DNA from: Thermodesulfobacteriota bacterium
Lineage (GTDB): Bacteria; Desulfobacterota; Desulfarculia; JACQYL01
DNA length: 64,000 nucleotides
Direction of reading: 5' to 3'
Assembly (NCBI GenBank): GCA_963675595.2
Contig: CAXXLZ010000001.1
Span: 1 to 64,000, forward strand
A program made the translations under genes and the position numbers. How positions within the stretch are numbered: position 1 is the first letter of the stretch; each line of letters opens with the position of its first letter. The notes below the pieces were generated by a model that was not told the DNA's origin, did not search any database, and worked only from the letters and a program-made list of their open reading frames with translations. Shown in pieces: positions 3,718 to 53,100 of this stretch.

Positions 3718-3765
3718 ACCGGAGTTCCGCCGAGTTGCAAACTACTTACGTCAGGTGGGTGAAGC

Positions 3766-6141: not shown

Positions 6142-7592
6142 TCAACCTAGTTTGACGGTGACGAAGAAAGTAGCGCCTCGTCGCCAAACCAGGAGTAGAA
6201 GCGTCTTAGCCTCATTTTTGCCTGTGGCCGCCTTGAATTCCTCCACCGAGTTGATCGGTTTGTGTTCCACTTCCAGGATGACATCTCCCCGGAGCAAGCC
6301 GCTTTCCGCAGCAGGGCTTCCCGGCTCCACCGAGGTTACGGCCACGCCTTGAGATTTTTCGAGCCCGAGACCTTTGGCCAGTTCCGGCGTAACGGTCTGG
6401 ATGGATATCCCGATACGTTTTCCTTGGGTGGTTTCGGAAGCCACGGTGAGCTCGTCTTTCAGAGTCCCCAATTCCACCTTCAAGGTCTTCTTCTTTCCGT
6501 CACGGAGAATCTGCACTTCCACCTGGGTGTCCGGGGGAACGTTGGCGACCATTTGGGGCAGTACCTGGGAGTTTTCCACGGGCTGATTATTGAAGGCGAC
6601 AATGACGTCACCCCGTTTGATGCCCGCCTTGGCCGCAGGACCGCCTTCGGTGACGTCCGCCACCAGAGCTCCGTTGCGGTCGGAAAGCTTAAACGAGTCG
6701 GCCAGCTCTTCGGTGATATTCTGGATGGTCACTCCCAGCCATCCTCTGGTGACCTTGCCTTTTTCCTTCAAATGAGTCAGCACGCTCTTCGCCATGTTGA
6801 TGGGCACGGCGAAACCGATTCCCTGCCCTGTGGCCACAATGGCGGTATTGATGCCGACGACGTCGCCGTAATAGTTGAATAGGGGGCCGCCGCTGTTGCC
6901 CGGATTGATGGAGGCGTCCGTTTGAATGAAATCATCATAGGGGCCGGCGCCGATTACTCTTCCCGTGGCGCTGATGATGCCCGTTGTCACGGTTTCCGAC
7001 AAACCGAAGGGGTTGCCGATGGCCAACACGGGTTCACCCTGGCGAAGGGTGTCGGAGTCGCCGAGGGTGACGAAACTCAGGTCCTCTTTCGGCTCGATCT
7101 TGATCAAGGCGATGTCCGTCTTGGGATCGGTACCGACGACCTTGGCCGGATACTCTGTTTTGTCATAAAGCACGATCTGAATTTCGTCGGCTTCCTGCAC
7201 GACATGGTTGTTGGTTACGATGTAGCCGTCCTTACTGACGATAAATCCGGATCCCAGTCCCCTTTTGGCGATATTCGCGGGGCATCCGATTACCGAAAAA
7301 AACGTTCCCAGAAATCCTTAAACGGATCATTTTCGCCGAAAGGCGACGTGCCGTGCCCTTGGAAAGGCATGGCGCTCATTTTTTCGACCTTGACTACGCT
7401 GATATTCACGACACAAGGCTTAAGCCGCTCCACCAAGTTGGGAACGGTCTCGTTGGTGACTTCGAATTTCCGGTGCGGAATGGACGATTCCGTCCAGAAT
7501 GGTGCGGCCGCCGCGATACCCGACAAAAAAATACTCAACACAACGACGCGTATTCCAACCGCTATCCAACTTCTGCTTCGCTTGTGGTTCAT
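6142..7592 (-). CDS. DegP/DegQ (Do-family) periplasmic serine protease with two PDZ domains, frameshifted near 7290
   Basis: Signal peptide; TNNHV, DIALIKI and QTDASINPGNSGGPL catalytic motifs; two PDZ repeats. Confidence 0.93.
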
Positions 7593-7989
7593 CTAAGATT
7601 TCCTCCTTGTGACGATTCTTTCTTGTGCCGTTGTTCGTCTTCTGCGAGACGATTTGTCAAAATAGATTGCCGCGAGCCGAATGCGTTTAATGTTTTCTCC
7701 AGACCCAATTCTACGGGTTGATGGCCGATTTGGCAACATGCTGAATTCTTTAAGGTTTTAGTTTATTTGCGAAGTCTCCCCGGCTGATCCGGCGTCCGGA
7801 GGCGCGGAATCGCCATGCCTTGCCGCGGGAACGGGTGGATCAGTGCGTTGATGTTTTCTTTCCAAAGCCCGAGATTTGCGTCATCCGGATTCTTCGGCGA
7901 GGCTTCGATGAACCTTGAGGGCGGGGTCTCGGTTCATATACTTCTTGAGGCGTTGAATTCCGGAAAGTGATGGATATGATACAATCATC

Positions 7990-9378
7990 ATGAAGAAGCC
8001 GAAACGTTTGACCCCGGACGAGGCGGAGACCATTTTGGATTCCGTGGCGGACGGGGTTTTCACCGTAGACAAGGACTACCGGGTTACTTGGTTCAACCGG
8101 GCGGCCACTCGGATTACAGGCGTTCCGAGGGAGGAGGCCGTGGGTCGGCACTGCTGCGAGGTGTTCCGGGCGGAGATCTGTGAGGCCGACTGCGCGCTGA
8201 AACAAACCGTGCGAACCGGCAAGCCCCTGGTGAATCGAGCGGTCTATATTGTGAGACCCGACGGGCGGCGGGTGCCCATCAGCGTGAGCACCGCTCTTCT
8301 GTTGGACCGGAAGGGGGAGGTCATCGGGGGCGTGGAAACCTTCCGGGACCTCAGCTTAGTGGAAGAACTTCGCAAAGAGGTGGAGCGTCGCTACACCTTC
8401 GAAGACATCATATCCCGCAATCACGCCATGCGGGACATTTTTTCCATTTTGCCCGAGGTGGCCCGGAGCGACGCCACGGTGCTGATCGAAGGAGAAAGCG
8501 GAACCGGCAAGGAATTACTGGCGCGCGCCATTCACAATCTTTCGTCCAGGAATGACAAAGCCGCGGTGACGGTGAACTGCGGCGCCCTTCCGGACACGCT
8601 TCTCGAATCCGAGTTGTTCGGCTACAAAGCCGGAGCCTTTACCGACGCCAAAAAGGACAAGCCGGGACGGTTCGCCCAGGCCGAAGGAGGTACCCTGTTT
8701 CTGGACGAAATCGGGGACCTGTCTCCCGCTTTGCAGGTGAGGCTGCTCAGGTTCCTTCAAGAAAGAACCTACGAGCCTTTGGGATCGAACCACACGTTGC
8801 ATGCCGACGTCAGGATTTTGGCCGCGACCAACCGTGAGCTCCAGGGTGAAATGCAGAACGGGCGTTTCCGCCAGGATCTTTATTACCGAATCAACGTCAT
8901 GCGGCTTCGGCTACCGCCTTTGAGGGAAAGGAAAGAAGATATTCCACTGCTTGTGGAGCACTTTGTCTCCCATATGAACCGCGTGAAGGGAAAGAATATC
9001 GAAGGTCTTTCCAACGACGCCCTGTCCGCCTTTATGGAGCATGATTGGCCGGGCAACATACGGGAGTTGGAAAACGCCATCGAGCACGCCTTCATTCTTT
9101 GCCCGGGCGGACTCATCGAACGCCGACATCTCCCGGAACAGTTTCGTTCGTCGTTTTCGGTTCCCGACGGCATGGTGGGGAGCGGAACCACTTTGGCGGA
9201 AGTCGAAGCGAGAATCATCTATGAGACGCTGATCCGGCATCAAGGGAACCGCCAAGCCACGGCCAACGAACTGGGCATCGACAAGACCACCCTGTGGCGG
9301 AAGATCAAGAAGCTCGGACTCGACGTCCCGCGAGGCGGAAACCGCTCGGAGTCCCCCGAAAACGAAGAAACTCAATGA
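7990..9378 (+). CDS. PAS-domain sigma-54-dependent transcriptional activator
   Basis: N-terminal [34 protein letters not shown] and a Fis-type HTH. Confidence 0.95.
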
Positions 9379-9555
9379 CGCCGCCGTCGGCACCCTGATC
9401 CCCCCAACGGTTGCCCGGGCATTCCAAAAATCGTCGCGGTCCCACCGGTGATGATCCGCCTTGTATGAGCGCCGCCCGCATTTTCGCCGCTTTGAAGCGG
9501 CCGGCTGATTTGTAGGGCCGGCCTCGGAAGTCCCGATGGCCGGCGCTGATCGGCG

Positions 9556-10059
9556 CTATCCGATGAGCACCATGCTGTACCAGGCCGGCATCATCTTTCC
9601 GTCTTTGTCAAATTCCACTTTGAATCCCAACGGGGTCAGCGTCTTGCCGAAGTCGACTCCGTAAGCGTCCATGGAAGGGCGCGCGAGATGGGGAAAGCGG
9701 CAGGGTTCGGGAAAGGCGCATTCCTCGCACTGGACACAGAGCGCAAGCGCCATGGAATACCCGAAGCCGAGCATCATGGATTCCTTCTCCACCCCGAGGG
9801 CGACGTCCTGGCCGAGCTTGGCGTCCGTGGTCTTGATGACGACGGCCTTATCGTATTCTTTGAAAGCCTCGTCGAACTGCTCTTGGGAGAAATGGAGATT
9901 GGGAGGACACGTCCAGTACTTGCCCCATCGTTTGCACCCGAACCGGCATTTCAAATGCGACCTCGGGTCGAACGCCACCTGCGAGGTGTCGATCAGTTTG
10001 GCTTCGACGGCACCCAATTCCAGCGCCTTTTCCACCAGGACTTCAGGGTTCGCTTCCAT
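9556..10059 (-). CDS. DUF2284-family Cys-rich predicted metal-binding protein
   Basis: KCRFGC..WTCPP and CVQCEEC..CRFPHLARPSMDAYGVD motifs. Confidence 0.8.
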   Translation of the reverse strand: MEANPEVLVEKALELGAVEAKLIDTSQVAFDPRSHLKCRFGCKRWGKYWTCPPNLHFSQEQFDEAFKEYDKAVVIKTTDAKLGQDVALGVEKESMMLGFGYSMALALCVQCEECAFPEPCRFPHLARPSMDAYGVDFGKTLTPLGFKVEFDKDGKMMPAWYSMVLIG

Positions 10060-10095
10060 TCCTTCTCCTCTTAATCGGGCCGTTATAAAAGGCCG

Positions 10096-11981
10096 CCGAA
10101 GCTTGACACTCTGTGCGATAGCGCCATAATGATATCAAGTAGTTACATATTTTGATTGGACGGTTTTTACACTACAAGCCTCGTTTCATGGCAGGGACGA
10201 TGGAATGGGTGGCGCTCCGATCAAAGTCAGCCAGTGCTTTTGTTCGTCCGTGGGACGGGCCACGACACGGGTTTTTGAGGCGCCGATTTCCAGTTCCCCC
10301 ACCTTGATTCTTTGGAGTTGGTAAAGGAGTTTGGGTACGGAGACCGTCTTCAGTTTCGAGCGCATCCATCGCTCGACTTGAAGGGCGAGGACACAGACAA
10401 AAATATGAGCGCGTATGCGGCGTTCCGTCCAGTGGTAGACCGGACGGATCAGGAGCGTGCTTTTCAGCGACCGCCACCCGCGCTCGATTTCCGCCAGGTC
10501 CTTATAGCGTCGAACCACTTCTTCCGGAGAGAGCGCAAAGTCGGTGGTCTCCAGCATCAGCATACCGTCGATTTTCTGTTCCCATTCCAGTGCCTTTCCG
10601 TTCTTCACCACCGTGACTTTGTCCCCCACCCGGGTTAATCGGTAGAAGCGAAGCAGGTTGCGGTCACGAAGGTGATCACGGATTCGATCATAGGTTCCTT
10701 CCGGCGTGGGTCTTCGCCCTCTTCCCTCGGGCCGGGTCAAGTGGTGGAGCTTCTTCTTGACCCAATCATCCGAAGCCGCCAAACGACGTTCCCGATTCTT
10801 CTTCGCCTCCAGAGCAATGGCGGGGGAGTAGGCGACCACGAAGCGAACACCTTCCCGCTTCTCCTGAAGAAACTGCTCCTTATCGTTTTGTCTGTCGAAC
10901 CCCTGTTCGAGGGATCCGATGATTTCGTCGGCCCATTTGTTCCGACGAAGCGGGTGGGCTACGATGAAGCCCAACTCCTCATCGAGCAGTGCGTCTAGAT
11001 TGGCGTCGGAAAGCATGCCGCGGTCTCCCACGAAGACCACGCGCCTCAAAGCGAAGCGTGTCCTGAGGTCCTTCACCACGTCGGAAACGGTCGTCCTGTC
11101 GGCCGTGTTTCCGGGGAATACATGGTGACACAAAGGAATTCCTTCGCGCGTCACCACCATTCCGATCACCACTTGGCGCTTGTCGAACCGCCCGTCGCGA
11201 CTGTATCCGTATCGACGGAAATCGTCTTCCAACAGGGAACGCTCGCCTTCAAAATAGGTGGAGGTGATGTCGTAAAATACCAAATCCAGAGGCTCGGAGG
11301 GATCGAGAACACGCCGGGCGACCAACGGTTCGGCCTTCTCCTTGACGTGAAGCAGGCGATCCATGGCCCGGAGAAGATGGTGATAGGGGGGCTTGTCCCG
11401 GTCATCGTAATGCACCGAATCCAGCCAATCCAACAGGGCCAACTTGCTGCACGGGTCGCACACACGGTTGACGACCAGCATGCGAATGAGCTCCCAAGCC
11501 GGGAAGGAGGCGGAACCGCCGATTCCCGCATCCACCAATGCTTCCGAGAAACCCAATCGATCCCATACGCTTCCCGCCGCATGCACGTGGCCATAATCGC
11601 GGGAGGAAACAAGGCGTGGCTCTTCGCCCTCGGCGGGCAGGTCGCCGGCCGCGCGTTGGAAACCTTTCGCGAGTTTGCGGAGGGTCTCAATCCCCAACTT
11701 GTCTACAGGCCCGAGGTTAACGATGACCCGATTTCTGGGAGCGCCTCCTTGTGCGGGGTGTCTGTAGCTCTCGCACAACTGGACGGAGCTGTACACCTTG
11801 CCCCGTTGTCTCTGTCGATGCACTCGAACGAACATAGGCTACAGCATACATATTTAAAACCAATATATCAAGCTATATAACCATATATTATACACTACAC
11901 ATTTACAGGCAAAACAGAACCTTTCTATCGTAATTCCAGCAAGTTACATAAAAATGGACGGGAAAAAGTGTCAAACTTCGG
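10096..11981 (-). mobile_element. IS1634-family insertion sequence, complete
   Basis: 15-bp terminal inverted repeats CCGAAG(C/T)TTGACACT at 10096-10110 and 11967-11981; 6-bp target duplication AGGCCG at 10090-10095 and 11982-11987. Confidence 0.92.
10186..11835 (-). CDS. IS1634-family DDE transposase
   Basis: VFYDITSTYFEG, GYSRDGR, FVGDRGM and IERGWRSLKS..IRPVYHW..RIRAHIFVCVLA motifs. Confidence 0.93.
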   Translation of the reverse strand: MFVRVHRQRQRGKVYSSVQLCESYRHPAQGGAPRNRVIVNLGPVDKLGIETLRKLAKGFQRAAGDLPAEGEEPRLVSSRDYGHVHAAGSVWDRLGFSEALVDAGIGGSASFPAWELIRMLVVNRVCDPCSKLALLDWLDSVHYDDRDKPPYHHLLRAMDRLLHVKEKAEPLVARRVLDPSEPLDLVFYDITSTYFEGERSLLEDDFRRYGYSRDGRFDKRQVVIGMVVTREGIPLCHHVFPGNTADRTTVSDVVKDLRTRFALRRVVFVGDRGMLSDANLDALLDEELGFIVAHPLRRNKWADEIIGSLEQGFDRQNDKEQFLQEKREGVRFVVAYSPAIALEAKKNRERRLAASDDWVKKKLHHLTRPEGRGRRPTPEGTYDRIRDHLRDRNLLRFYRLTRVGDKVTVVKNGKALEWEQKIDGMLMLETTDFALSPEEVVRRYKDLAEIERGWRSLKSTLLIRPVYHWTERRIRAHIFVCVLALQVERWMRSKLKTVSVPKLLYQLQRIKVGELEIGASKTRVVARPTDEQKHWLTLIGAPPIPSSLP

Positions 11982-12120
11982 AGGCCGGTTGCCACAGGCA
12001 GGCAAAGAAACGACGACATGCAACGCGCGCAAATCCCAAGAAATGAGACGGACCCAAGAAGTATGCCGCTGTGACGAGGGGTCCAGCGCGACGCGGCGGA
12101 TCGGGTTCTACACCGACCTG
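11982..12120 (+). repeat. Dispersed repeat family A copy, split by IS1634 (5' part at about 10076-10095)
   Basis: Aligns by eye with the reverse complement of 44024-44170 and with 47454-47613 and 34262-34380. Confidence 0.7.
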
Positions 12121-12270
12121 ATGGGCCTCACCGAGCGGAAGGCAGGCTACCGACATATGGGGGCGGAAGTCAATCGAGATTTCGTATGGACCGCAAAGAT
12201 GATAAACAAAAAGAGGGTGCCGCGTATGGTGCGGCATTTCAGGAGAGTCCGCCGCATAGAGGCGGACTCC

Positions 12271-42875: not shown

Positions 42876-43774
42876 GCCCGGCGCGTCGTAGGAAAGCGGT
42901 TGATTATGTTCGAAGTGAACATGCCGCTTCAGAGCGTCGGGCCTGCCGCGTAGCCGGTCAACACCGATCCACCCAACGTTATGAGCCGAAGGAACGGGAC
43001 GATGAGGTGGAACTGATCAAGGCTCTTCACCGGTTGGTTGGAGAACATCCCCGTTTTGGATGCCGTAGGATCACTCGGCTGCTGCGTGATGCGGGGTGGG
43101 CGGTAAACTACAAGCGAATTCATAGACTTTGGAAAGAGGAGGGATTCAAGGTACCTCGAAAAGCCAAGAAGAAACGCTTCCTGGGAGTTGATGCCAATGC
43201 GTGCAACAAGCGTAAGGCGGCTTTTGCAAATGATGTCTGGACGTTGGATTTCATTCATGACCGCTTGGTCGACGGCCGTCAGTTCAAGTGCTTGGCCATT
43301 GTCGACGAGTTTACTCGGGAAAACCTGGCCCTGAGGATCAACCGCTCCATTACGGGTGAAGACGTTTTGAACGAGCTGAGCCGATTGATGGGCGAGCGGG
43401 GAGTTCCAACGGGCATTCGATCGGATAACGGTCCCGAATTTATAGCCCAAAAGGTGAGAAATTGGCTGAAAGACCTGGGAGTGGGAACCTTTTTCGTCGA
43501 GCCGGGAGCCCCTTGGCAGAACGGGTACGTGGAAAGTTTCAACAGCCGTTTTCGGGATGAATTCTTGAACATGGAAATTTTCAACAACATCAAGGAAGCG
43601 CAGACTCTGGCCGCCAAATGGCGGAAAGTCTATAACGAGGAAAGACCGCACAGTGCATTGAATTACATGACCCCGGCCCAGTTCGCGGCGAGCCCTTGGG
43701 GCCTCGACTCCGCCTCGCTCAGCTCGGCTTCGCCGTGGCCCCAAGGGCCGGGGATGGAAAACCGCGAGTCATGA
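42872..43774 (+). CDS. IS3 transposase OrfB (DDE integrase core), probably expressed by frameshift
   Basis: VWTLDF, IRSDNGPEF, PWQNGYVESFNSRFRDE and YNEERPHSAL motifs. Confidence 0.93.
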   Translation, partial: LSPARRRKAVDYVRSEHAASERRACRVAGQHRSTQRYEPKERDDEVELIKALHRLVGEHPRFGCRRITRLLRDAGWAVNYKRIHRLWKEEGFKVPRKAKKKRFLGVDANACNKRKAAFANDVWTLDFIHDRLVDGRQFKCLAIVDEFTRENLALRINRSITGEDVLNELSRLMGERGVPTGIRSDNGPEFIAQKVRNWLKDLGVGTFFVEPGAPWQNGYVESFNSRFRDEFLNMEIFNNIKEAQTLAAKWRKVYNEERPHSALNYMTPAQFAASPWGLDSASLSSASPWPQGPGMENRES

Positions 43775-44023
43775 TAAAACTCTCATAACTCCTGGACCAA
43801 AAACTGGGGGCTTGACACCTTGTTTCGGGAAATCCATCGTGTTCTCAAGCAAGGCGGATTTCTCGCGGTTATCGAGTGCAAGAAGGAAGAAACGCCCTTC
43901 GGCCCACCAATGGAACTGAGACGCTCTGCCCAAGACATAGAGGGGGCGATGACTCCGGGAGATTTCCTCAAAATCCGCTATGTGGACCTGGGAGTCACGT
44001 ATCTGATCCTGTTTGCCGCCGCC

Positions 44024-44170
44024 TAGACCGTTGAAAAGCACGATCTGCGGCGTTGCGCTTCATCCCTCGTCACTGCGACGTACTTCTATGTATGCCTTTC
44101 CTCGGGACTTGCCCCTCGCATCTCATCGTTTTTCGCCGGCCCTCGGCAACCGGCCCTTTTCATCGGACCG
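44024..44170 (-). repeat. Dispersed repeat family A copy (inverted)
   Basis: GATCTGCGGCGTTGCGCTTCATCCCTCGTCACTGCGACGTAC core. Confidence 0.75.
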
Positions 44171-44382
44171 TCGGCGGAATCTCGGACCCGGCGGCCGGGT
44201 GGGCTTACCAAGGATGGTTCGTCCATCTCTCCTTCCTTTCGGTCGTTTCCGCCGGATTCGGATTGCGCTTTCCGGCGCCCCGTACAATATTTCCGGGCGT
44301 ATGTGTTTCCCTGTGTGTCTTTCATAGTTGATGATATGTATAATTCAGGCTACATTGAGTCATATCCGCCCGGGAGGACCTG

Positions 44383-44901
44383 ATGGGCAAATTCGATTTC
44401 TCCGTCATTCGGAATCTCCGCAAGAAGTGGGGATTAACCGCAGAGGAACTGGCAAAGCGTTCGGGCCTGACGCGAGGGACCATCGCGAAGATTGAAGGAA
44501 AAGACGGCAATCCGACCATCGAAACCATTGAAGCGTTGAGTGCCGTCTTCCAGTTGTCGTCCAGCGAATTGATCCGCCTTGCGGAGACCGCTCAGTGCGA
44601 GGCCGGCGCGACTCAGCCTTTTAAAGGACAAGGGATCGACGGCGCTCACATCTGGTTTCCCAATTTCGAGGTCTATCACCTCCGTGGGGGGCGCGGTGTG
44701 CGGAAGGAATCGGATCCCAGGCATCACGAGAATACGGCCGAAGTGTGCCTGGTGCTTTCCGGCAAGGTGAGAGTCGTCGTCGGCGAACAAAGCCATGAAT
44801 TGGGACCCGGTATGGCGCTACGGTTCAAGGCCCTGCATGAGCACCACTTCGATTTTATTGAAGAATCCGAGATGCTGCTCATTCACCATGTCTCGGTTTG
44901 A
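44383..44901 (+). CDS. XRE-family HTH regulator with cupin domain
   Basis: IRNLRKKWGLTAEELAKRSGLTRGTIAKIE..NPTIETI; cupin HH..E..VLSG motif. Confidence 0.9.
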   Translation: MGKFDFSVIRNLRKKWGLTAEELAKRSGLTRGTIAKIEGKDGNPTIETIEALSAVFQLSSSELIRLAETAQCEAGATQPFKGQGIDGAHIWFPNFEVYHLRGGRGVRKESDPRHHENTAEVCLVLSGKVRVVVGEQSHELGPGMALRFKALHEHHFDFIEESEMLLIHHVSV

Positions 44902-45092
44902 TCCGGGACGCGAGGAGACGGAACCAACCACGATTTCTCTGCGTATTCATTGAAAAGCCGAAGCGCCCGCGTGCCGGAACGGAGAACCTTTGTCGCAGGC
45001 TCGGCAACCAAACGAGGACCACGAGGGTCGGCAGCCGCCAAGGCCCTGATCCGGGGGTCTTTTTTTTTATCCTTCTCGGGAAGGAGGGCGAA

Positions 45093-45761
45093 ATGGTCGA
45101 TAATCGAGAAGTGTTCGAAAGAATCTACAGGGACTATTTGGTGGAAGTGTCCGCCCTTGATTTGAATCGCATCAAGGAACGGCTCGGCGTGGAGCTGGAT
45201 GGGGAAACGGCGATTATCCCGTTCTACGGTGCGCCGTACCGGGTTTCTCCTGGAGGCATTGTCGATGATCAGGGGCGTCGACCGAATCATGCCGTGAGCG
45301 TGATCCTGTGCAAGTATCTGCTTCTGTGCCCGGAAAACGAACCGGTGGAGGGGGAGTGGGTGACTTACAGAGAGTTCAAGGATGCGCTTCCATTTGTCGG
45401 CGGGTTTGCTCAGAACACGGAGAGGCCCATCGGCCAAGGTTTTTCCGGCCGCATGGAACTGCTGAAGACAGCGTCGGAAGCCTTGTCGGGGCGACCGGCG
45501 GAAGAGGAAATCAGCGCCGACCTCGTTTTGAAATTCGAGGTCCTGCCCAAAATCCCCTTGTTGATGCTGTTCAACGATCGTGACGAGGATTTCCCGTCCA
45601 ATTGTTCGTTGTTGTTCCGGAGAAGCGCGGCGGAGTACCTGGACATGGAATGCCTCGCCATGGTCGGTTGGGTACTGTCCGACCGATTGAAAGTATGGCT
45701 GCCGGACCGATCGTCGGCGCCATCCGATTTGGCGATGTCCGTGGGCGCCGAGGATTCTTGA
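45093..45761 (+). CDS. DUF3786-family protein
   Basis: ILCKYLL..WVTYREF..LPKIPL..DEDFP..LLF..YLDMECL pattern. Confidence 0.8.
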   Translation: MVDNREVFERIYRDYLVEVSALDLNRIKERLGVELDGETAIIPFYGAPYRVSPGGIVDDQGRRPNHAVSVILCKYLLLCPENEPVEGEWVTYREFKDALPFVGGFAQNTERPIGQGFSGRMELLKTASEALSGRPAEEEISADLVLKFEVLPKIPLLMLFNDRDEDFPSNCSLLFRRSAAEYLDMECLAMVGWVLSDRLKVWLPDRSSAPSDLAMSVGAEDS

Positions 45762-45820
45762 CGAAACCCTGAGACTCCTCGGCGGAGAGGGCCTCCCTGA
45801 AGATGCCCGACCGGGCGCCG

Positions 45821-46615
45821 CTAACCGTTACGGTTTTTCAGTCTGAATGCCGCCAAGAGGATATACAGGCCGATCCATACGGCATAAGAGACCAAGAACA
45901 AGGTGGTTACCGGGTTTGCGGCGAGGGAAAAGGCTCCCCCGACCCGGGCGTCCGGCCCCTCTCCCTCCCGGTAGAAATCCGTCAGGGTCAAACGAACGTT
46001 TTGTCCCACCAAGGGTTCCAGCATGCGGATCGTGCCGGCCAGAACTTGTTCTTCTCCGAGGAACACCGAAACTTCGGCGTGGTCTTCTTTGGGGTGGAAT
46101 GTATCTCGCGTCAGAATTCTTCTTGAGGGCCGGTAGGGATAGTTGAGCAGGGCCGGATCATCTTTGAATTCAAGACCGCGGAGTTCGATCCGGTATTCGC
46201 CGGCTTGTCCGTTGGATCCTGGAAGAAGCCGGACGTTTTCCGCTTTGGTTCCAAAAGCCATTTGCGAGAGGTGCCCCAAAAGAACGAGCACCATGATGAG
46301 ATGAATGAGCACGAGGAGCCGCCCCGAACCTCGCCGGGTCCCGGTCATTCTCGGGATCAACCGTGTCCACGTGCAGCAGATCAAGTTCACCACCATGATT
46401 CCCGCCGCAGCGCAAAGTCCGAGGAACCAAGTCGCGGCCACCGGAGTTTTCCAGGCCGAGTTCATGATCCAATCTCTGACCAGTTCTCCATTCATGGCGT
46501 CGAGCCCCGGCCGAAGGGCCGGAATGTAACTGGTTATTGCGCCCAACCCGAACCAAACGGCCAGGAAAGTCAAAGCCCAAAAGGACAGCGTCAACGAAGA
46601 GAGGCGGTTGATCAT
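45821..46615 (-). CDS. Short ResB/CcsB-like membrane protein
   Basis: VNLICCTWTR and LIHLIMVLVLLGH transmembrane motifs; ATGA overlap with the upstream gene. Confidence 0.65.
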   Translation of the reverse strand: MINRLSSLTLSFWALTFLAVWFGLGAITSYIPALRPGLDAMNGELVRDWIMNSAWKTPVAATWFLGLCAAAGIMVVNLICCTWTRLIPRMTGTRRGSGRLLVLIHLIMVLVLLGHLSQMAFGTKAENVRLLPGSNGQAGEYRIELRGLEFKDDPALLNYPYRPSRRILTRDTFHPKEDHAEVSVFLGEEQVLAGTIRMLEPLVGQNVRLTLTDFYREGEGPDARVGGAFSLAANPVTTLFLVSYAVWIGLYILLAAFRLKNRNG

Positions 46616-47361
46616 AAGTTCTCCAAAAGGTGCGCCGCGTAAAGAATGGCTGGAAAGCAGCCCGCGATTGCGATGGCCCATGCCCTGGCTCGGGGGTTGG
46701 ACGACCAACGGACCGGCAGATGAAGTACGACGGTGATTCCCAGAAATACCGTGGTGGCCTCCAGGAAGTTTCGCCCCCAGCGCCAGTAGTCGCCCAACCA
46801 GTTGAGAGCCCAAGTGAACCCGCAGAACTCGCCGGCCAGGAAAAGCCCCGTACCGGCTACCAAGTGGTTCACGGCCCGTTTGCGTGCGCACCGCGCCGCC
46901 GCTTCATCAACGGCAGGCAACAGAGAGCCGCCGGCCGTGAGACCGGAAAAGAGGATGACCGCCACCGAAGCCCTTCTCAACAAGAAGAAGCATCGAGCCC
47001 AGGTGTAGTCGTACATGAACCAGGCCGGATATGGGGTACGATCAGCGAACAGCAGGAGGCTCAGGAGCAAGGAAACGGCGGTCCATACGAGCCGATCCAG
47101 TCGGACCGTTTTGAGGGCGCCGCCCGACCGCAACATGCCCAGAAGACCCAAAATGAAGGCCATGAACATCATGGGTTCGATGGCTCCGGCCACAGGCGGG
47201 CGTTTGGTCTTCGCATACAGAAGGACCAGGGTAAGGAAGATGCTTGTGAGCGCAGCTAAACCCAACCAGGGCGTGAGTCGCTTCAAGCGCATCCAACCTG
47301 ATGCCGCGGCGGCTATGCTGAGCACAAGCGCTGCAAAATAGGCAACTTCGAGAAAAGGCAA
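46612..47361 (-). CDS. Divergent CcsA/ResC-like (WWD-domain) membrane protein
   Basis: RPPVAGAIE, WALNWLGDYWRWG (WWD-like) and VVLHLP; TTG start after GGAAGGAG. Confidence 0.7.
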   Translation of the reverse strand: MPFLEVAYFAALVLSIAAAASGWMRLKRLTPWLGLAALTSIFLTLVLLYAKTKRPPVAGAIEPMMFMAFILGLLGMLRSGGALKTVRLDRLVWTAVSLLLSLLLFADRTPYPAWFMYDYTWARCFFLLRRASVAVILFSGLTAGGSLLPAVDEAAARCARKRAVNHLVAGTGLFLAGEFCGFTWALNWLGDYWRWGRNFLEATTVFLGITVVLHLPVRWSSNPRARAWAIAIAGCFPAILYAAHLLENL

Positions 47362-47453
47362 GATGAAGACTCCTTCCGGAAGATAGAAGAAAGGAGGAGG
47401 GTTGCGTGACGCGCCCTTCCACCATTGTTTGGGGGGAGCGAAACCCGTGCCGA

Positions 47454-47613
47454 CGGCCCGTTCAAACGGGCCGGTTTCGGAAGGCCGGAGAAAAACGACG
47501 ACGCTCAAAACGCGGCGGCCTTGAGCAATGCATCGTTTGGAAAGCATGTTGCAGCAGCGATGGATGAAGCGCAATTCGCTTGGCTAGGGCGGATTGCGCC
47601 TTTCAACAGCCTG
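47454..47613 (+). repeat. Dispersed repeat family A copy
   Basis: GGGCCGGTT..AAAAACGACGA..GGATGAAGCGCAA..TTTCAACAGCCTG. Confidence 0.65.
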
Positions 47614-47648
47614 TTGGACGGGTTATGCTCGTTGAACGGCGACGTTGG

Positions 47649-49730
47649 TCAGAATCGCGCGATCAGACCGATCCGCCATTCCCGTCCGGGTCCGGGAAAG
47701 TCCACTTCGGACTCGTAGTCTTTGTCAAAGATGTTGTTCACGCCTGCATAGGCTTCGAAGTATTCGAAGAACTCCCTGGACACACGCGCGTTAAGAATAA
47801 AGTAACCGTCGGTCTTCTCCCCTTCGAGGTCGGGATTCGCCGGCGTGGGCAGTTGATCGTAGCGTTCTCCCACGGCGAGGCCTTGGAGGTCCAGCTTGGT
47901 CAAGACTAGGGGGATGAGGTAGCTTGCCCCAACGTCCAGCTTGTGCTCCGGAACGCGTAGGACTTTGTCCGTGGCCCGATCGTCGCTTTCATCGCGGGCT
48001 ACGGTGTAGGTGTAATCCAATCGGAAGATCAGTTCCTTGAGAGGACTCCAGACGAGCCCGGCTTCCATTCCATAAAGGTGGACCTTTCCATAATTCTGGA
48101 ATTGGGACGTGGGATTATTGGGGCCGTCGCGACTGATCCAGTCACTGATATCCATGTAGAAGCCGGCCAACCGGATGTCGATTTGATCGAAGAAACGCCT
48201 GCCGACGCCGAGGTTATAATTGATGCTCGTCTCCGCTTCCAGCTCCGGGTTCCCTCCCTTGGTGCTGTAAAGCTCCTGCAAGGTGGGAAATCGGGTCTTC
48301 CGTCCAACGGATCCGAAAATTCGCGTCGTATCGGAGAACGTGTAACTCGCCCCGACCATGGGGTTCCATTCCGATTTGGTTCCCGGAGTATCAAGGTCTT
48401 GCTGCTTCGTGAGGTTGCCGTCCTTGTCCGTGAGATTTTCTTCAGCCCTGTCCACCTGATACCAATCGTACCCCATTCCCGCGACCACCATCAGGCCCGG
48501 AACGGCGGTGAATCGGTACTCGATCCCCGAGGAACCCGTGTAGGAGAATGATTCGGCATAGGGCAGGTACTCGTCGTCCCGTTCCTTGTGGGAGTCCCCT
48601 TTGAAGTGGAAGGCCGCGGCCAGCATGTGGCCGTCCAGCACGTTGTATTCCGCCGTGAGGTTGCCTCCGGCGAAATAGTCCTTGTAACGGCTGTGTGCGA
48701 TGGCATCGGTGAAGTTTGCGTCCGAGTAGGAAACGTACAAGTCCTCGTGGTTGTGGTAGAAGAGTTTGCCTTTGAGGGTGAGCTTTTCGCTCAAAGCCCG
48801 ACGGCCGCTCAGGTCCACTCCCATGTCGTCATAGTCTTCCCAGCGGGACAGCCTGGAGAAGGCGGGTCGACTTGTGAACACCATTTCGCTGCTGATGTTC
48901 GGCGGCATGCCCCGATCGGCGTTGATCCAGTGGAAGTTGGCAAAGTACTCGCCGTCGTCGGATTCGTATCCCACCCGAGACCATATGCTGTCCACGCGGT
49001 AATCCGAGTTGTTTCTGTAACCCCCGTCTTCCAGGAGCGCTTCCTCGGTACCCCCGGGTTTGTATACGATGCCGCCCATTTCCGGTGCGTAGTCGCCGGA
49101 CATCCGCCACCCGTCGCTTGCTCTTCGGGTGTAATTGAGAAAGTAGTTCCAGTTTCCGATCTTCATGCCGTGGGAAACGCCGGCACGATAGGTGCCGTGC
49201 TCGCCCGCTTCGCCGATGAGCATAAAGGAGGGCTTTTCGCTCGCGGCCTTTTTGGTTACGACATTGATCACGCCGGCGAGGGCGTTGGGACCATAGAGGA
49301 CGGAAGAGGCGCCTTTAATGATTTCGATTCTGGAAATGATGTCGGCTGGAATCTGGTCCAGGTTCAGCCGGTGGTACTTGGTTTCGTAATAAGGAACGCC
49401 GTCGATGAGAATCGCGGCTTTTTCCTGCGCCAAGCCGTAAATTTGCACCTGAGGTTCATTACGTCGGTTGGTGGTGACCAGAACACCCGGGGCGAACGCC
49501 AGGGCCTCGGCTACGGTGGTGCTGTTTGTGGCACGTACTTGTTCCTCGGTGACGATGTCGTGGATCACCACTTCTCTATCGTCGGGTCGATCTGCTGAAA
49601 CCAGGAGTTCTCCGAGGTAATAGGGTTCGAAACCCGCCTTCTCGGTATCCTGGGCGGAAGCCGGTCCTACGGCCGATAAAAGGATGATGAGCAGACTGAG
49701 GAGGAGGATCTTGGGGCATTCGGGGCGCAT
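47649..49730 (-). CDS. TonB-dependent outer-membrane receptor
   Basis: Signal peptide; plug ILIDGVP..IEIIKGASSVLYGPNALAGVINVVTKK; C-terminal GVNNIFDKDY..PGREWRIGLIARF. Confidence 0.95.
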   Translation of the reverse strand: MRPECPKILLLSLLIILLSAVGPASAQDTEKAGFEPYYLGELLVSADRPDDREVVIHDIVTEEQVRATNSTTVAEALAFAPGVLVTTNRRNEPQVQIYGLAQEKAAILIDGVPYYETKYHRLNLDQIPADIISRIEIIKGASSVLYGPNALAGVINVVTKKAASEKPSFMLIGEAGEHGTYRAGVSHGMKIGNWNYFLNYTRRASDGWRMSGDYAPEMGGIVYKPGGTEEALLEDGGYRNNSDYRVDSIWSRVGYESDDGEYFANFHWINADRGMPPNISSEMVFTSRPAFSRLSRWEDYDDMGVDLSGRRALSEKLTLKGKLFYHNHEDLYVSYSDANFTDAIAHSRYKDYFAGGNLTAEYNVLDGHMLAAAFHFKGDSHKERDDEYLPYAESFSYTGSSGIEYRFTAVPGLMVVAGMGYDWYQVDRAEENLTDKDGNLTKQQDLDTPGTKSEWNPMVGASYTFSDTTRIFGSVGRKTRFPTLQELYSTKGGNPELEAETSINYNLGVGRRFFDQIDIRLAGFYMDISDWISRDGPNNPTSQFQNYGKVHLYGMEAGLVWSPLKELIFRLDYTYTVARDESDDRATDKVLRVPEHKLDVGASYLIPLVLTKLDLQGLAVGERYDQLPTPANPDLEGEKTDGYFILNARVSREFFEYFEAYAGVNNIFDKDYESEVDFPGPGREWRIGLIARF

Positions 49731-49765
49731 TATGAGTTCTCCTTGCCGGTGGGAATCCGGACTGA

Positions 49766-49859
49766 TATATTTTTAAAAATATACCGACGGTGCGGAAAAA
49801 GCCGCTGAAAAGCGGCCGACGACATGGTTATTTATATTTTTAAAAATATATCGAGTCAA
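49766..49859 (-). promoter_or_regulatory. Promoter with two identical 18-bp palindromic operators TATATTTTTAAAAATATA
   Basis: Copies at 49766-49783 and 49833-49850; minus-strand TTGACT-17-TATAAA overlaps the second. Confidence 0.8.
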
Positions 49860-50148
49860 GGAAAACCGTGTCGCGGATTTCCCTCGGAGGAAGGACTCGG
49901 GCAACTTCCCGTGTTTATTAAGTATAACCTTTCCTCCCTCTTCATTACCGATCTCTTTTGAGCATGCCCTTGCGGAACCGGGAAAAACGCGATATATTTA
50001 AATCTAACGTAATGAAATGCTCATTTCCGGGATCTCTTGCCGGTAGTCTTCCGCAGCGATTTTTAGCTTGTCTGTCGGTCGAAGCATCTGAAGGTCGTTT
50101 CTCCATCCCCGGGATATCGTCGACGGTTTCTCCCGTCAAAGGTGAGCC

Positions 50149-53100
50149 GTGATGAACCCAACGAACACAAGACGTGTCGCCTTGGCGGTTCGAACCACAC
50201 GTGTCTGCGGCGCCCTCGCGGTAGTCTCGGGGGTCGCGGCCTTTCTGTGGCGGCTCGCCGGGCTTCCTCCTTTGGGCACCTTCGGGCCCGACAGGATGCC
50301 CATGGCTTCCGGCACGACCCTGCTTTTCGTGCTGTTCGGCGGTGTGGCGTTTTTCCTTCCTCTCATGAGGAAAAGCCGGCGCCTGCGAAGAATCGGCGCC
50401 GCATGCGCGGTGGTGGGAGTCACGGCCGCGCTGGTGCTGCTGGTCTGCTACTTCCTGGACATTCATCCCGAATTCGAGCATTGGGCATTTTCCCCTACGG
50501 AGGCGACGGGCGCTTCGCCCAAGGGACTCATGTCTCCGCTGACGGCCTTCTGCTTTTTGATTGCGGGAGGGGCGTTCCTATCCCATCTAATTTCCTCCGG
50601 GCGAAGTCCGACCGCAAAGATCTCTTTTCTGCTTTCCTGTTTTCTGCTTCTATTGAGCATGACGTTTATCGCCGCTTACGTCATGGGGAGCCCCCTTTTG
50701 TACGGCAGCGGCGTTCTCCCGCCGGCTTTGCCCACGTCTTTGACTTTCCTGTTTCTTGGGGCGGCTCTCCTTCCGCCCACCGTGGAACGACTCCGGTCGT
50801 CGGAGCCGAAGGGGGACGTTTCGAGAAGGCGGGTCGCCTATGGCCTCATTCTGATTTTTGTCATGTCTGCCGCGGGGATTGTCCTTGCGGGCGATCTCTA
50901 CTTTCGGAGTTACACCGCACGGTTCCGAGCCGAAGTGGAAGGGGCGCTGGCTGCGGTGGCGGACATGAAGGTCCGAGAACTGGTGCATTGGCGAAAAGAG
51001 CGAATGGGAGACGCCGCCGTATTTTTCGACAACCCGGATTTTTCCGAATTGGTGCGGCGCTACCTCGACGATCCAAAAAACTCGGACGCGAAAGGCCGAA
51101 TTCAGGTCTGGTTGGACGCCGTTCGGGATTCCGGCCGCTACGACAGGGTTTCCCTGCTGGATGTGGTCGGCCATGATCGCATCAATTCTCCGGCCACGCC
51201 CGACTCGGTAATCCCGCACCCGGCCCACGACGTGTCCGCGGTGCTGCATTCCGACCGAGTCTCCTTCCTGGACTTCCACCGACATACTCCCAATGGACCC
51301 ATTTGCCTGGCCGTTATGGCCCCCATAATCGACGTTTCTGAAAACAGGCGGCCCTTGGGCGTTCTTGTCTTCCGCATCGATCCGGGGGAATACCTGTATC
51401 CCTTGATTCGTCGCTGGCCCACGCCGGCCAAGACTGCGGAAACCCTTTTGGTCCGCCGCGAGGGAGATGACGTCCTTTTTCTCAACGACTTGAAGTTCAG
51501 AGACAACGCCGCCTTCAATCTGCGCTTCTCCGTTGATTTGCCCGATCTGCCGGCGGCGAGGGCGGTCCGCGGTGAAGAAGGTGCGGTAGAGGGCAAAGAC
51601 TACCGAGATGTGCCCGTAGTGGCGGCCATACGAGCGATTCCGGGCTCCCCGTGGTTCTTGGTGGCCCGTATGGATCGGTCGGAAGTGTATGCTCCCGCCA
51701 GGGAGCGTTTGTGGATCGTCATCGTGATCGTCGGTCTTCTGTTGCTCGCGTCGGGGGTCAGTGTAGGCGCCCTGTGGCGCTATCAAAGTACGCGGTTCGA
51801 GCGGGAACGTATGGAGTCGGCGGAGGCTCTGGAACGCTCGGAAACGACCATCAGAGCGATCTTCGACGGCGCCAGAGACGGCATCTTGACGGCGGACGCA
51901 AAGACCGGGAAGTTCATTGCGGCCAACGAGGCGATTTGCCGAATGCTCGGTTATTCGCGAGAAGAACTGTTCGCGCTCGGTGTGGAGGACATCCATCCCG
52001 TGGAACAAATTCCATATGTTCTCGATCAGTTCCGGAGGCTGATGGAAGGGGAGATCACTTTTGCCGCCGACATTCCGGTGCAACGCGAGGATGGCTCCCT
52101 ATTCTTTGCCGAAGTCGGCGCAACGCCTGTGGAACTCGACGGACGCCTGTGCCTGATCGGGATATTCAGAGACGCCACGGATCGCAGGCTCGCCGAATCC
52201 CGCATTTTGCATCTCAACGCGGTGCTGCGAGGTGTCAGGAGCGTGAACCGACTGATCACGCGGGAAAAGGATCGGGAGGGTCTGATCAGGCAAGCCTGTG
52301 ATCTGCTTGTGGAAGCCAGGGGATTTCACTCCGTGGTGATCGGCTTGACGGAAGACGACGGCGATGGAATTTCAGCTTACGCAGCGGCGGGAGACGTACC
52401 GGAGTCGCTCCGGGAGCTGCTCGAACGTGGGGAAAAGCCGGAGCTGCCCCTGGAAGCCATGGCGGGCGGGGAGGTAGCGCCTTTCAGAAGTCGAAGGGAT
52501 CCCTTTTCCGAGACGGACGATTCGGATTGCGGAGAGGATGACGCGGTGGCCGTTGGTCTTGAGCAAGGCGGCAAGATTTTGGGCTTTATGTTGGCGTATC
52601 TTCCCGAGGGCATCAAAGATGATCCGGAGGAGCAGTACCTTCTGCGGGAAGCGGCCGGTGACATTGCCTTCGCATTGCGCGGAATAGAGATTGAGGCCGA
52701 ACGAGACCATTCGGCCGCGGCACTGGCGGACCGAGAAGAACAGCTTCGGCAGGCACAAAAACTGGAGGCCGTCGGCCGTTTGGCCGGAGGCGTGGCCCAC
52801 GATTTCAACAATCTCCTCACGTTGATCCTGGGCTATGCGGATGCCGTGATGCAGGAACTCCACACCGACGATACGCTACGAGAGGATGTCGAACAGATAC
52901 TGCACGCTGCGCGGCGCGCTACGAGTCTGACCACTCGGCTTCTGGCGTTCAGCAGGAAGCAGACTCTGCAACCGGAGATTCTCGATCTGAATGAAGTTGT
53001 GGCGAATGTGGAGAAGATGCTCCGGCGGCTCATCGGTGAAGACATCGAGTTGCGCACGGTTCACGCCGAGGGTTTGGGCAAAGTGAAAGCCGATCCGGGT

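Follow-up and report, generated by a model that had tools for sequence, protein, structure and literature searches.

A CcsBA-Derived Gene Pair, a TonB-Dependent Receptor, and ModE-Type Operators in a Thermodesulfobacteriota Genome: A Possible System for Molybdenum or Tungsten Acquisition

The first 64,000 nucleotides of contig CAXXLZ010000001.1 (forward strand; assembly GCA_963675595.2), from a Thermodesulfobacteriota bacterium, are referred to here as the window; the 6.8-Mb genome that carries it is designated G000, and L and C numbers denote extracted loci and contigs. Three co-oriented genes on the minus strand of the window encode a TonB-dependent receptor of 693 amino acids (47649-49730; Pfam Plug and TonB_dep_Rec_b-barrel domains), a membrane protein of 249 amino acids with eight predicted helices that profile and fold comparisons derive from CcsA (gene A, 46612-47361), and a protein of 264 amino acids, with four transmembrane helices and a small beta domain, that is assigned mainly by fold as a short derivative of ResB/CcsB (gene B, 45821-46615). 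A first-pass annotation had described the last two as a degenerate CcsA/CcsB pair, translationally coupled, which might take the place of an inner-membrane permease for the cargo of the receptor (heme, a corrinoid, or another metal complex). Gene calls bear out the shared orientation and the coupling, the TGA of A overlapping the ATG of B in the ATGA at 46612-46615.

Because the first hydrophobic helix of A starts just past a TTG at 47361, which follows GGAAGGAG, we take A to span 46612-47361, that TTG being the most likely start within a longest open reading frame (ORF) that begins at 47574. The spacer of 287 nucleotides between the receptor gene and A holds, on the minus strand, a terminator-like hairpin with a T-run (47502-47527), a consensus match only, from a scan that found seven such sites against 5.7 expected in shuffled sequence; it may act as an attenuator. 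Since the spacer and the hairpin separate the receptor gene from A, we treat a single receptor-A-B transcript as plausible rather than established. The G+C content is uniform across the region (0.53-0.59). Among the Pfam-scanned ORFs of at least 150 amino acids in about 29-62 kb of the window, there is no c-type cytochrome, CcdA/thioredoxin, or ATP-binding cassette (ABC) permease gene, as had been reported for the immediate neighborhood.

Two identical palindromes of 18 nucleotides, TATAT-N8-ATATA, lie upstream of the receptor gene, a distal one at 49833-49850 and a proximal one at 49766-49783; both were recognized by sequence match, and no strand is assigned to them. Read with their flanks on the minus strand, they are CGA-TATAT-TTTTAAAA-ATATA and CGG-TATAT-TTTTAAAA-ATATA, 67 nucleotides apart, with the proximal box about 36 nucleotides upstream of the receptor ATG. 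The palindrome fits the Escherichia coli-type ModE consensus ATCGNTATATA-N6-TATATANCGAT quoted in an excerpt of PMC545781. Scored as operators of the type CGNTATAT-N8-ATATANCG, the two copies differ at one and two of the 14 specified positions and so resemble the operators of a ModE regulon, the proximal box having a single mismatch to the 24-nucleotide ModE-type pattern. At up to two mismatches the 18-mer occurs twice in the genome, solely upstream of the receptor gene, and shuffling the window gives an expectation of 0.00 for TATAT-N8-ATATA. On the minus strand a promoter-like site (TTGACT-17-TATAAA) overlaps the distal box by our reading; a promoter scan chose a neighboring candidate.

The genome has a mod locus of its own, consisting of a ModE-like gene, modA, modB, and modC (ModB 346 bits against a cut-off of 262, ModC 321 against 285), and a related box, CGC-TATTC-TTTTACAT-ATATA-ACG, precedes its modA. 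Searched genome-wide at up to two mismatches, the 24-nucleotide pattern gives 14 sites against six for a reversed control, and these include the two receptor sites and the modA site. The core TATAT-N8-ATATA at one mismatch is not enriched (71 genome-wide sites against 68 for the reversed control), so only exact or flank-extended matches are informative. One further box with one mismatch of 14 (G000 C1:528219-528242; L084, near position 3720) lies between a GntR-type regulator gene, with an operon behind it for XdhB/XdhC-like molybdenum hydroxylase subunits of the xanthine dehydrogenase family, and a divergent ORF of 332 amino acids whose product matches no family. Another one-mismatch site lies beside an insertion sequence (IS) and unknown genes. 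An ORF of 473 amino acids with no NCBIfam match (L082:5163-6584; G000 C2:23162-24583) immediately precedes the ModE-like gene in the modABC locus.

Neither A nor B matches a Pfam or NCBIfam model, even at E ≤ 1, and the designation "CcsA/ResB-like", which the first-pass annotation had used, therefore depends on profile and fold and not on family models; on those two grounds it stands. A word-indexed search returned, for A, the protein itself and one other at 27% identity and, for B, only one 98%-identical protein of the same length. An exhaustive profile search for relatives of A through 1.84 billion representatives yielded 145 sequences at E ≤ 1e-3 (118 at ≤ 1e-10), mostly of 240-256 amino acids. 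Our alignment of the A family (n = 86) comprises 85 of the 145 listed matches and, in addition, P0004, which with a second sequence made up the query profile; it includes every fetched protein (P0003-P0149) of 225-300 amino acids apart from the B protein and the weak or partial P0123, P0136, P0140, P0142, and P0146. Scored against the Pfam families, 22 of the 86 reach PF01578 at E ≤ 0.01 (best 1.1e-8) and three of 23 B members reach PF05140 at E ≤ 0.1. The profile of A matches the CcsBA structure 7s9y at E 2e-5 over positions 9-244, nearly its full length, and scores 225 bits for A against 52 bits for the canonical CcsA of the same genome. That of B matches 7s9y weakly (E 2.6 for the whole sequence, 0.15 for the domain).

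The AlphaFold model of A (mean predicted local distance difference test score [pLDDT] 93.4) superimposes on 7s9y with a Z score of 21.4 and a root-mean-square deviation (rmsd) of 2.9 Å over 245 of 249 residues, and on CcmF (6zmq) with Z 20.7, the best unrelated match having Z 11.5. For B (mean pLDDT 90.6) the corresponding values are Z 10.6 and rmsd 3.5 Å over 210 of 264 residues against residues 6-337 of the 7s9y chain and Z 9.2 against CcmF; the best unrelated match reaches Z 8.5, a moderate margin, and Foldseek places B on 7s9y at E 1.4e-5 with probability 1.00. A of the window thus stays below the gathering threshold of PF01578 but shares the fold of its solved members; B stays below the Pfam threshold of PF05140 and lacks the large periplasmic domain but likewise shares the fold. 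The periplasmic domain of B is about 110 amino acids, against a canonical ResB ORF of 470 in the same genome, and is as short as first described. The nearest clusters in a protein atlas hold proteins of 245-276 amino acids, with PF01578 or PF05140 on 12-91% of members and Thermodesulfobacteriota as the commonest phylum; their automatic names, where given, are cytochrome c biogenesis proteins. Users of annotation should be aware that A and B proteins fall below Pfam cut-offs and, where named at all, carry this label. Sequence profiles and models support derivation of the pair from CcsBA. The ratio of nonsynonymous to synonymous substitution rates (dN/dS) is 0.09-0.43 in all eight comparisons (both genes in four close genome pairs), and the pair is a distinct, constrained subfamily under purifying selection.

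Conservation of the neighborhood was assessed by running the A profile over 401 genomes of the phylum, of which 21 yielded 23 strong matches between them (173 bits or more); after these came a match at 95 bits and then canonical CcsA at 77 bits or less. From 21 strong matches and the 95-bit match we extracted 22 loci of up to 19.5 kb each, leaving out the locus of the window and a 2.4-kb contig of G034. Because the genomes are related, these loci do not count as independent samples, and their ORFs were called by a simple longest-ORF script that may miss small genes. B directly follows A in all 22. A receptor homologous to that of the window is in the cluster in 14, with 46-49% identity to it in five loci, 29-31% in eight, and 23% in one; the proposed linkage to TonB receptors is thus recovered in other genomes. 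The receptor gene comes immediately after B in 12 loci (L043-46, L049, L052, L053, L055-58, and L062) and beside an intervening ABC operon in L041 and L042. ResB-like and receptor genes of L056 read as one ORF of 942 amino acids with no intervening stop (6533-9361, minus strand), which might reflect gene fusion, a recoded stop, or an error of assembly.

An importer of the Peripla_BP_2-FecCD-ABC (BtuFCD-like) type is found in L041, L042, L053, L055, and L057, often with NTPase_1 and DUF364 genes, and in L047, L051, and L054 A and B are contiguous with modA, modB, and modC in the order A-B-modA-modB-modC, the three Mod proteins scoring above curated NCBIfam cut-offs. Upstream of the latter arrangement there is a ModE-like gene in L047 and L051, and nifB and nifEN in L054. 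In L048 a ModB-like permease, an ABC ATPase, and DUF364 precede A-B as a mod/tup-like operon. According to an excerpt of the DUF364 structure paper, genome context ties DUF364 to transporters of tungstate, molybdate, vanadium, and iron.

ModE-type boxes recur in the related loci. Within 200 nucleotides upstream of A, boxes with up to three mismatches occur in seven of the 22 (L044, L045, L046, L047, L049, L051, and L056), and L048 has two more at what is probably the head of its cluster, making eight loci in all besides the window. The boxes are usually tandem pairs 63-79 nucleotides apart, and over 378 kb the scan found 21, whereas shuffled sequences averaged 9.6 and reached at most 15. In L052, L053, L055, and L057 the region within about 100 nucleotides upstream of A shares an AT-rich element with AGTTATT-like repeats in place of a ModE-type box; it may be the site of another regulator.

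An excerpt of PMC6299221 gives a pair of periplasmic His that flank a WWD domain as the definition of the heme-handling family and states that each of four His is needed for CcsBA function. Both transmembrane His equivalents are retained in the pair. H214 of A, kept in 86 of 86 sequences, takes the place, in the alignment, of TM-His2, the transmembrane His that follows the WWD loop (residue 858 of the 7s9y chain), and H105 in the third transmembrane helix (TM3) of B, kept in 23 of 23, aligns, within the weak domain match (E 0.15), with the His of LLLHAS in 7s9y, which we take to be TM-His1 of CcsB. The Trp-rich loop is also preserved: the WGD-W-W motif of A aligns on WGRYWGWD of 7s9y, with W184 in 86, W193 in 85, and W195 and G190 in 82 of the 86 sequences, and E178 is found in 84. 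The position of the first periplasmic His (P-His1) is Phe (F125) in every one of the 86, followed by Phe in 73 and His in 13, so that the His expected before the WWD is indeed absent. WDPKE has become WGRNF in the window, as first noted, and W-S-x-G-F in the family consensus.

The C-terminal GLHSY segment, reported as missing, is absent, with the qualification that A of the window has a His in its last helix (H244), in a column that is His in 23 of 86 sequences. H244 lies nine residues before canonical P-His2 by sequence register, and the structural superposition on 7s9y extends to chain residue 902, so that H244 may or may not substitute for P-His2. In B, a second His, H115, occurs ten residues beyond H105 in 21 of 23 sequences (Gln in L048 and L050). 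Its counterpart is Ala in 7s9y and Gly in the ResB of the same genome, so we regard H115 as a family-specific gain toward the periplasmic end of TM3.

Aligned to CcsBA, then, the pair has an incomplete four-His set, and A lacks the two periplasmic His that define the heme-handling family. Judged by its residues, it cannot be a standard cytochrome c synthase. Nor is it the housekeeping enzyme, because a canonical ResB (the 470-residue ORF) and CcsA with LIAHVV, WSWDPKE, LLHARY, and GLHSY all present are encoded elsewhere in the genome (G000 C2:3807-3809 kb). The first-pass view of a CcsBA descendant without the defining periplasmic ligands is upheld in these respects. Since the transmembrane His are kept and the defining periplasmic pair is lost, we read A-B as a membrane b-type hemoprotein, and homology makes it likely that a heme would be held between H105 of B and H214 of A.

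The same data bear on the description of the pair as degenerate. Loss of the defining His ligands and the failure of Pfam and NCBIfam to recognize either protein are what one might see in functionless, decaying relics of a duplicated ccsBA. That reading has next to nothing to recommend it in view of the 145 representatives, the invariant positions, including the Phe that replaces P-His1, the unbroken A-B order in 22 loci, the dN/dS values, and two high-confidence AlphaFold models; the term "degenerate" is contradicted.

A dedicated System II-type synthase, or heme supplier, for a special CxxCH-containing periplasmic client is a further option, and we consider it very improbable. Other bacteria have CcsBA isoenzymes specialized for particular heme motifs. 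Seven of the 22 loci have, after the receptor gene, a gene for a secreted protein of about 350 amino acids (for example, L052:12910-13959, L055:12664-13716, and L056:5256-6326), and CxxCH is conserved in six of these seven. The protein has two weak Oxidored_molyb-like domains and in three loci is fused to a C-terminal TP_methylase-like domain (L043:12840-14705, L044:4392-6197, and L045:4713-6491). In those three genomes no transmembrane segment lies between the two parts of the protein, and the tetrapyrrole-methylase fold would thus be periplasmic. On the other side, 15 of the 22 loci lack the CxxCH protein and it was not found in the genome of the window, a canonical System II pair is already present there, and with an invariant Phe for P-His1 and no GLHSY the pair lacks ligands of the set of which every member is described as required (PMC6299221, excerpt).

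The receptor has a signal peptide, a plug (PF07715, 7.8e-23), and a 22-strand-type barrel (PF00593, 2.7e-41), and belongs to the TonB-dependent receptors. None of the substrate-specific NCBIfam models reaches its cut-off; all are far below, the heme and vitamin B12 receptor models giving 143-147 bits against cut-offs of 317-600. Its closest solved relative by sequence is BtuB (E 6e-19), in the plug region only.

That resemblance to BtuB is one reason to consider that A-B might be a channel turned to the import of heme, a corrinoid, or some other tetrapyrrole that the receptor brings in, as first proposed. Such a role would agree with the retained transmembrane heme ligands and Trp-rich loop, with BtuF/IsdE-like binding proteins in some clusters (far below cut-offs), with the secreted TP_methylase-like domain of L043-45, and with a second short CcsA/ResB-like pair of the same genome that lies beside CobN, ChlI/D-VWA, and BtuFCD-like genes. 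It is set back by the receptor scores just given; by Rfam, which detected no riboswitch at E ≤ 1 in positions 44000-51500 and, at gathering score, only a tRNA in seven related loci; and by the 22 scanned neighborhoods, which showed no genes for heme oxygenase, ChuS/X-type proteins, or corrinoid salvage. ModE-type boxes and the embedding of the pair in modABC operons point elsewhere, as do the mod/tup-like operon of L048 and, in other loci, DUF364/NTPase_1 and BtuFCD-like neighbors. We judge tetrapyrrole import quite unlikely. Heme and corrinoid are unsupported as cargo, and of the substrates first suggested only "another metal complex" would cover molybdenum or tungsten (Mo/W). Conserved pairing, a conserved receptor family, membership in mod operons, and ModE-type boxes make Mo/W the best-supported context, and on this genomic evidence Mo/W is probably the cargo.

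If the cargo is Mo/W or some other metal complex, A-B could itself be the inner-membrane conduit, a permease-like derivative of the CcsBA heme channel. CcsBA is described in the excerpt of PMC6299221 as a transmembrane heme conduit, A-B is the sole inner-membrane component encoded in the cluster of the window, and nine of the 22 related loci resemble the window in having a receptor and A-B and lacking any ABC importer within about 8 kb (L043-46, L049, L052, L056, L058, and L062), a soft count because contig ends cut some loci. A complete ABC importer shares the cluster with A-B in nine other loci, however, BtuFCD-like in five (L041, L042, L053, L055, and L057) and mod/tup-like in four (L047, L048, L051, and L054), and for this reason we favor an accessory role over a permease role. 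The genome also has its own modABC, an energy-coupling component is absent, and the conserved residues are His, Trp, and Phe, unlike the polar or cationic lining expected of an oxyanion path. The conduit reading is unlikely, and A-B is probably not the main permease.

The account that we favor, tentatively and with somewhat less than even confidence, is that the locus is a high-affinity Mo/W acquisition system repressed by molybdate or tungstate, in which A-B is a CcsBA-derived membrane b-type hemoprotein acting on cargo in the periplasm. The TonB-dependent receptor would carry a Mo/W species, which could be of the thiomolybdate type or a metallophore complex, across the outer membrane, and molybdate or tungstate would repress the system through the two ModE-type boxes. 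A and B would form a heterodimeric inner-membrane module, evolved from System II CcsBA, in which the fold of the ancestor, its intramembrane bis-His heme site (B H105 and A H214), and the Trp-rich periplasmic loop are retained. This module would act on the cargo at the periplasmic face, most probably by transmembrane electron transfer, in analogy to the fixed b-heme of CcmF. A redox role is the mechanism we prefer, because of the CcmF precedent, the extra His toward the outer leaflet, and the CxxCH protein of seven loci, yet it is a choice made with considerable reservation.

A number of observations weigh against this account. Four loci (L050 and L059-L061) show neither receptor nor mod genes, and 13 of the 22 have no ModE-type box at up to three mismatches. 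With 21 boxes against 9.6 in the loci and 14 against six in the genome, the specificity of the operators rests on position and not on number. Binding of ModE to the boxes is inferred by sequence match, and the two ModE-like proteins of the genome score 80 and 55 bits against an NCBIfam cut-off of 98.5 and have only the DNA-binding domain. The hairpin in the spacer means that the receptor gene and A-B may not share a transcript. We know of no chemistry that needs heme for Mo/W uptake, and a tetrapyrrole channel would be served just as well by the Trp-rich loop and the His residues. A tetrapyrrole link is also kept alive by the second short pair of the genome, which adjoins CobN and ChlI/D-type chelatase genes, and by the periplasmic TP_methylase-like domain, of tetrapyrrole methylase fold, in three loci. 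The CxxCH protein was found neither in the operon nor in the rest of the genome of the window; a match elsewhere was found only for its TP_methylase part.

Several known systems invite comparison. With CcsBA, the System II synthase and heme exporter (7S9Y and 7S9Z, from Helicobacter hepaticus), the pair shares the fold of both subunits, the order of helices, both transmembrane His, the Trp-rich loop, a "P-x-x-G/N-x-F/Y-E" loop, and an arrangement as two translationally coupled genes. It differs in the replacement of P-His1 by an invariant Phe and of WDPKE by W-S-x-G-F, in the absence of GLHSY, in a ResB periplasmic domain of about 110 amino acids instead of several hundred, in the second TM3 His gained by B, and in its setting, which offers no cytochrome or thiol-redox partner but a Mo/W uptake context with ModE-type operators. 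The System I heme lyase CcmF (6ZMQ) is nearly as good a structural match (Z 20.7 for A, 9.2 for B). It holds a stable b-heme between two transmembrane His and for that reason serves as the model for the proposed role of A-B, although it is a single long polypeptide that has both periplasmic His and acts together with CcmH and CcmE; A-B is linked to none of these.

Like A, the HemX-type CcsA paralogs of hem operons are small CcsA-family proteins that are not synthase subunits, but the HemX-type protein of this genome has all four motifs, passes PF01578, and has neither a ResB-like partner nor a link to transport genes. ModE-controlled modABC uptake offers the same operator sequence and spacing, with A and B as the first genes of the modABC operon in three related loci; in the literature on Mod systems that we searched, no TonB-dependent receptor or CcsBA-like component turned up. 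Inner-membrane heme reductases of the PepSY-TM/FoxB type offer a functional analogy only: they too are membrane hemoproteins encoded next to a TonB receptor and act on an imported complex in the periplasm, but they have an unrelated fold, ferric siderophores as substrates, and regulation by iron. Our literature search found no relevant CcsA/ResB-like protein tied to TonB receptors or Mo uptake and produced one lead in Bacteroides. An excerpt of PMC10434189 describes BT2473-BT2482 of Bacteroides thetaiotaomicron, induced by iron starvation, where two genes annotated "CcsA" neighbor those for a porin, a thiol oxidoreductase, and an M75 peptidase; these are CcsA-like genes, by annotation only, in another metal-uptake setting.

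A receptor and an A-B pair behind ModE-type sites look like an undescribed part of Mo/W uptake in anaerobes. How strict anaerobes acquire Mo/W where sulfide limits its availability is an open question, and TonB-dependent uptake of Mo/W is, to our knowledge, barely documented. If our reading is correct, a descendant of the cytochrome c synthase heme channel has moved into uptake clusters under ModE-type control together with a dedicated receptor family; these clusters would supply candidates for an outer-membrane Mo/W receptor and for a new accessory step in uptake, as well as a natural experiment on what becomes of a heme-handling fold once its periplasmic His ligands are replaced. In its most specific form, which we regard as doubtful, the hypothesis makes a two-subunit, CcsBA-derived membrane cytochrome b an undescribed core part of ModE-controlled Mo/W acquisition in anaerobic Thermodesulfobacteriota. 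Its inner heme would lie at B-H105/A-H214 and a possible outer site at B-H115 (with A-H244 in the subclade of the window), and electrons crossing the inner membrane would release or convert Mo/W from the form imported by the receptor (e.g., a thiomolybdate or metallophore complex under sulfidic conditions), feeding importers of the ModABC or BtuFCD type.

Two further CcsA relatives in the genome were noted. The HemX-type paralog (L002, G000 C2:39774-43391; ORF 817-2148) carries all four canonical motifs, scores 144 bits against PF01578, and sits between a gene for a SirC-like precorrin-2 dehydrogenase and hemA. The second short CcsA-like/ResB-like pair, different from A-B, is in L010 (G000 C2:3284000-3302000; 8735-9526 and 9238-9834 / 11636-12211). 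Its CcsA-like part matches PF01578 at 2.3e-6 and has a poor Trp loop, with a His retained near the P-His1 place; its ResB-like gene is interrupted by an IS (DDE transposase, 9880-11589), and the pair is flanked by CobN (1284 amino acids), Peripla_BP_2-FecCD-ABC genes, and a ChlI/ChlD-VWA protein.

Other neighbors of the operon in the window include an HTH-cupin regulator, a DUF3786 protein, an IS3-type integrase, methyltransferases, an MMPL/LolA-like pair, and hybrid histidine kinases. The XRE-HTH/cupin regulator (44383-44901, plus strand) and the DUF3786 protein (about 45090-45761, plus strand; 2.3e-48) converge on the end of B; neither recurs beside the pair in the 22 related loci, and we therefore exclude both from the system. 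The IS3-family integrase (rve, rve_3, and HTH_21 domains; 43007-43774, plus strand) lies 2 kb from the end of the operon and may be related to the changed gene order here, receptor-A-B as against A-B-receptor elsewhere.

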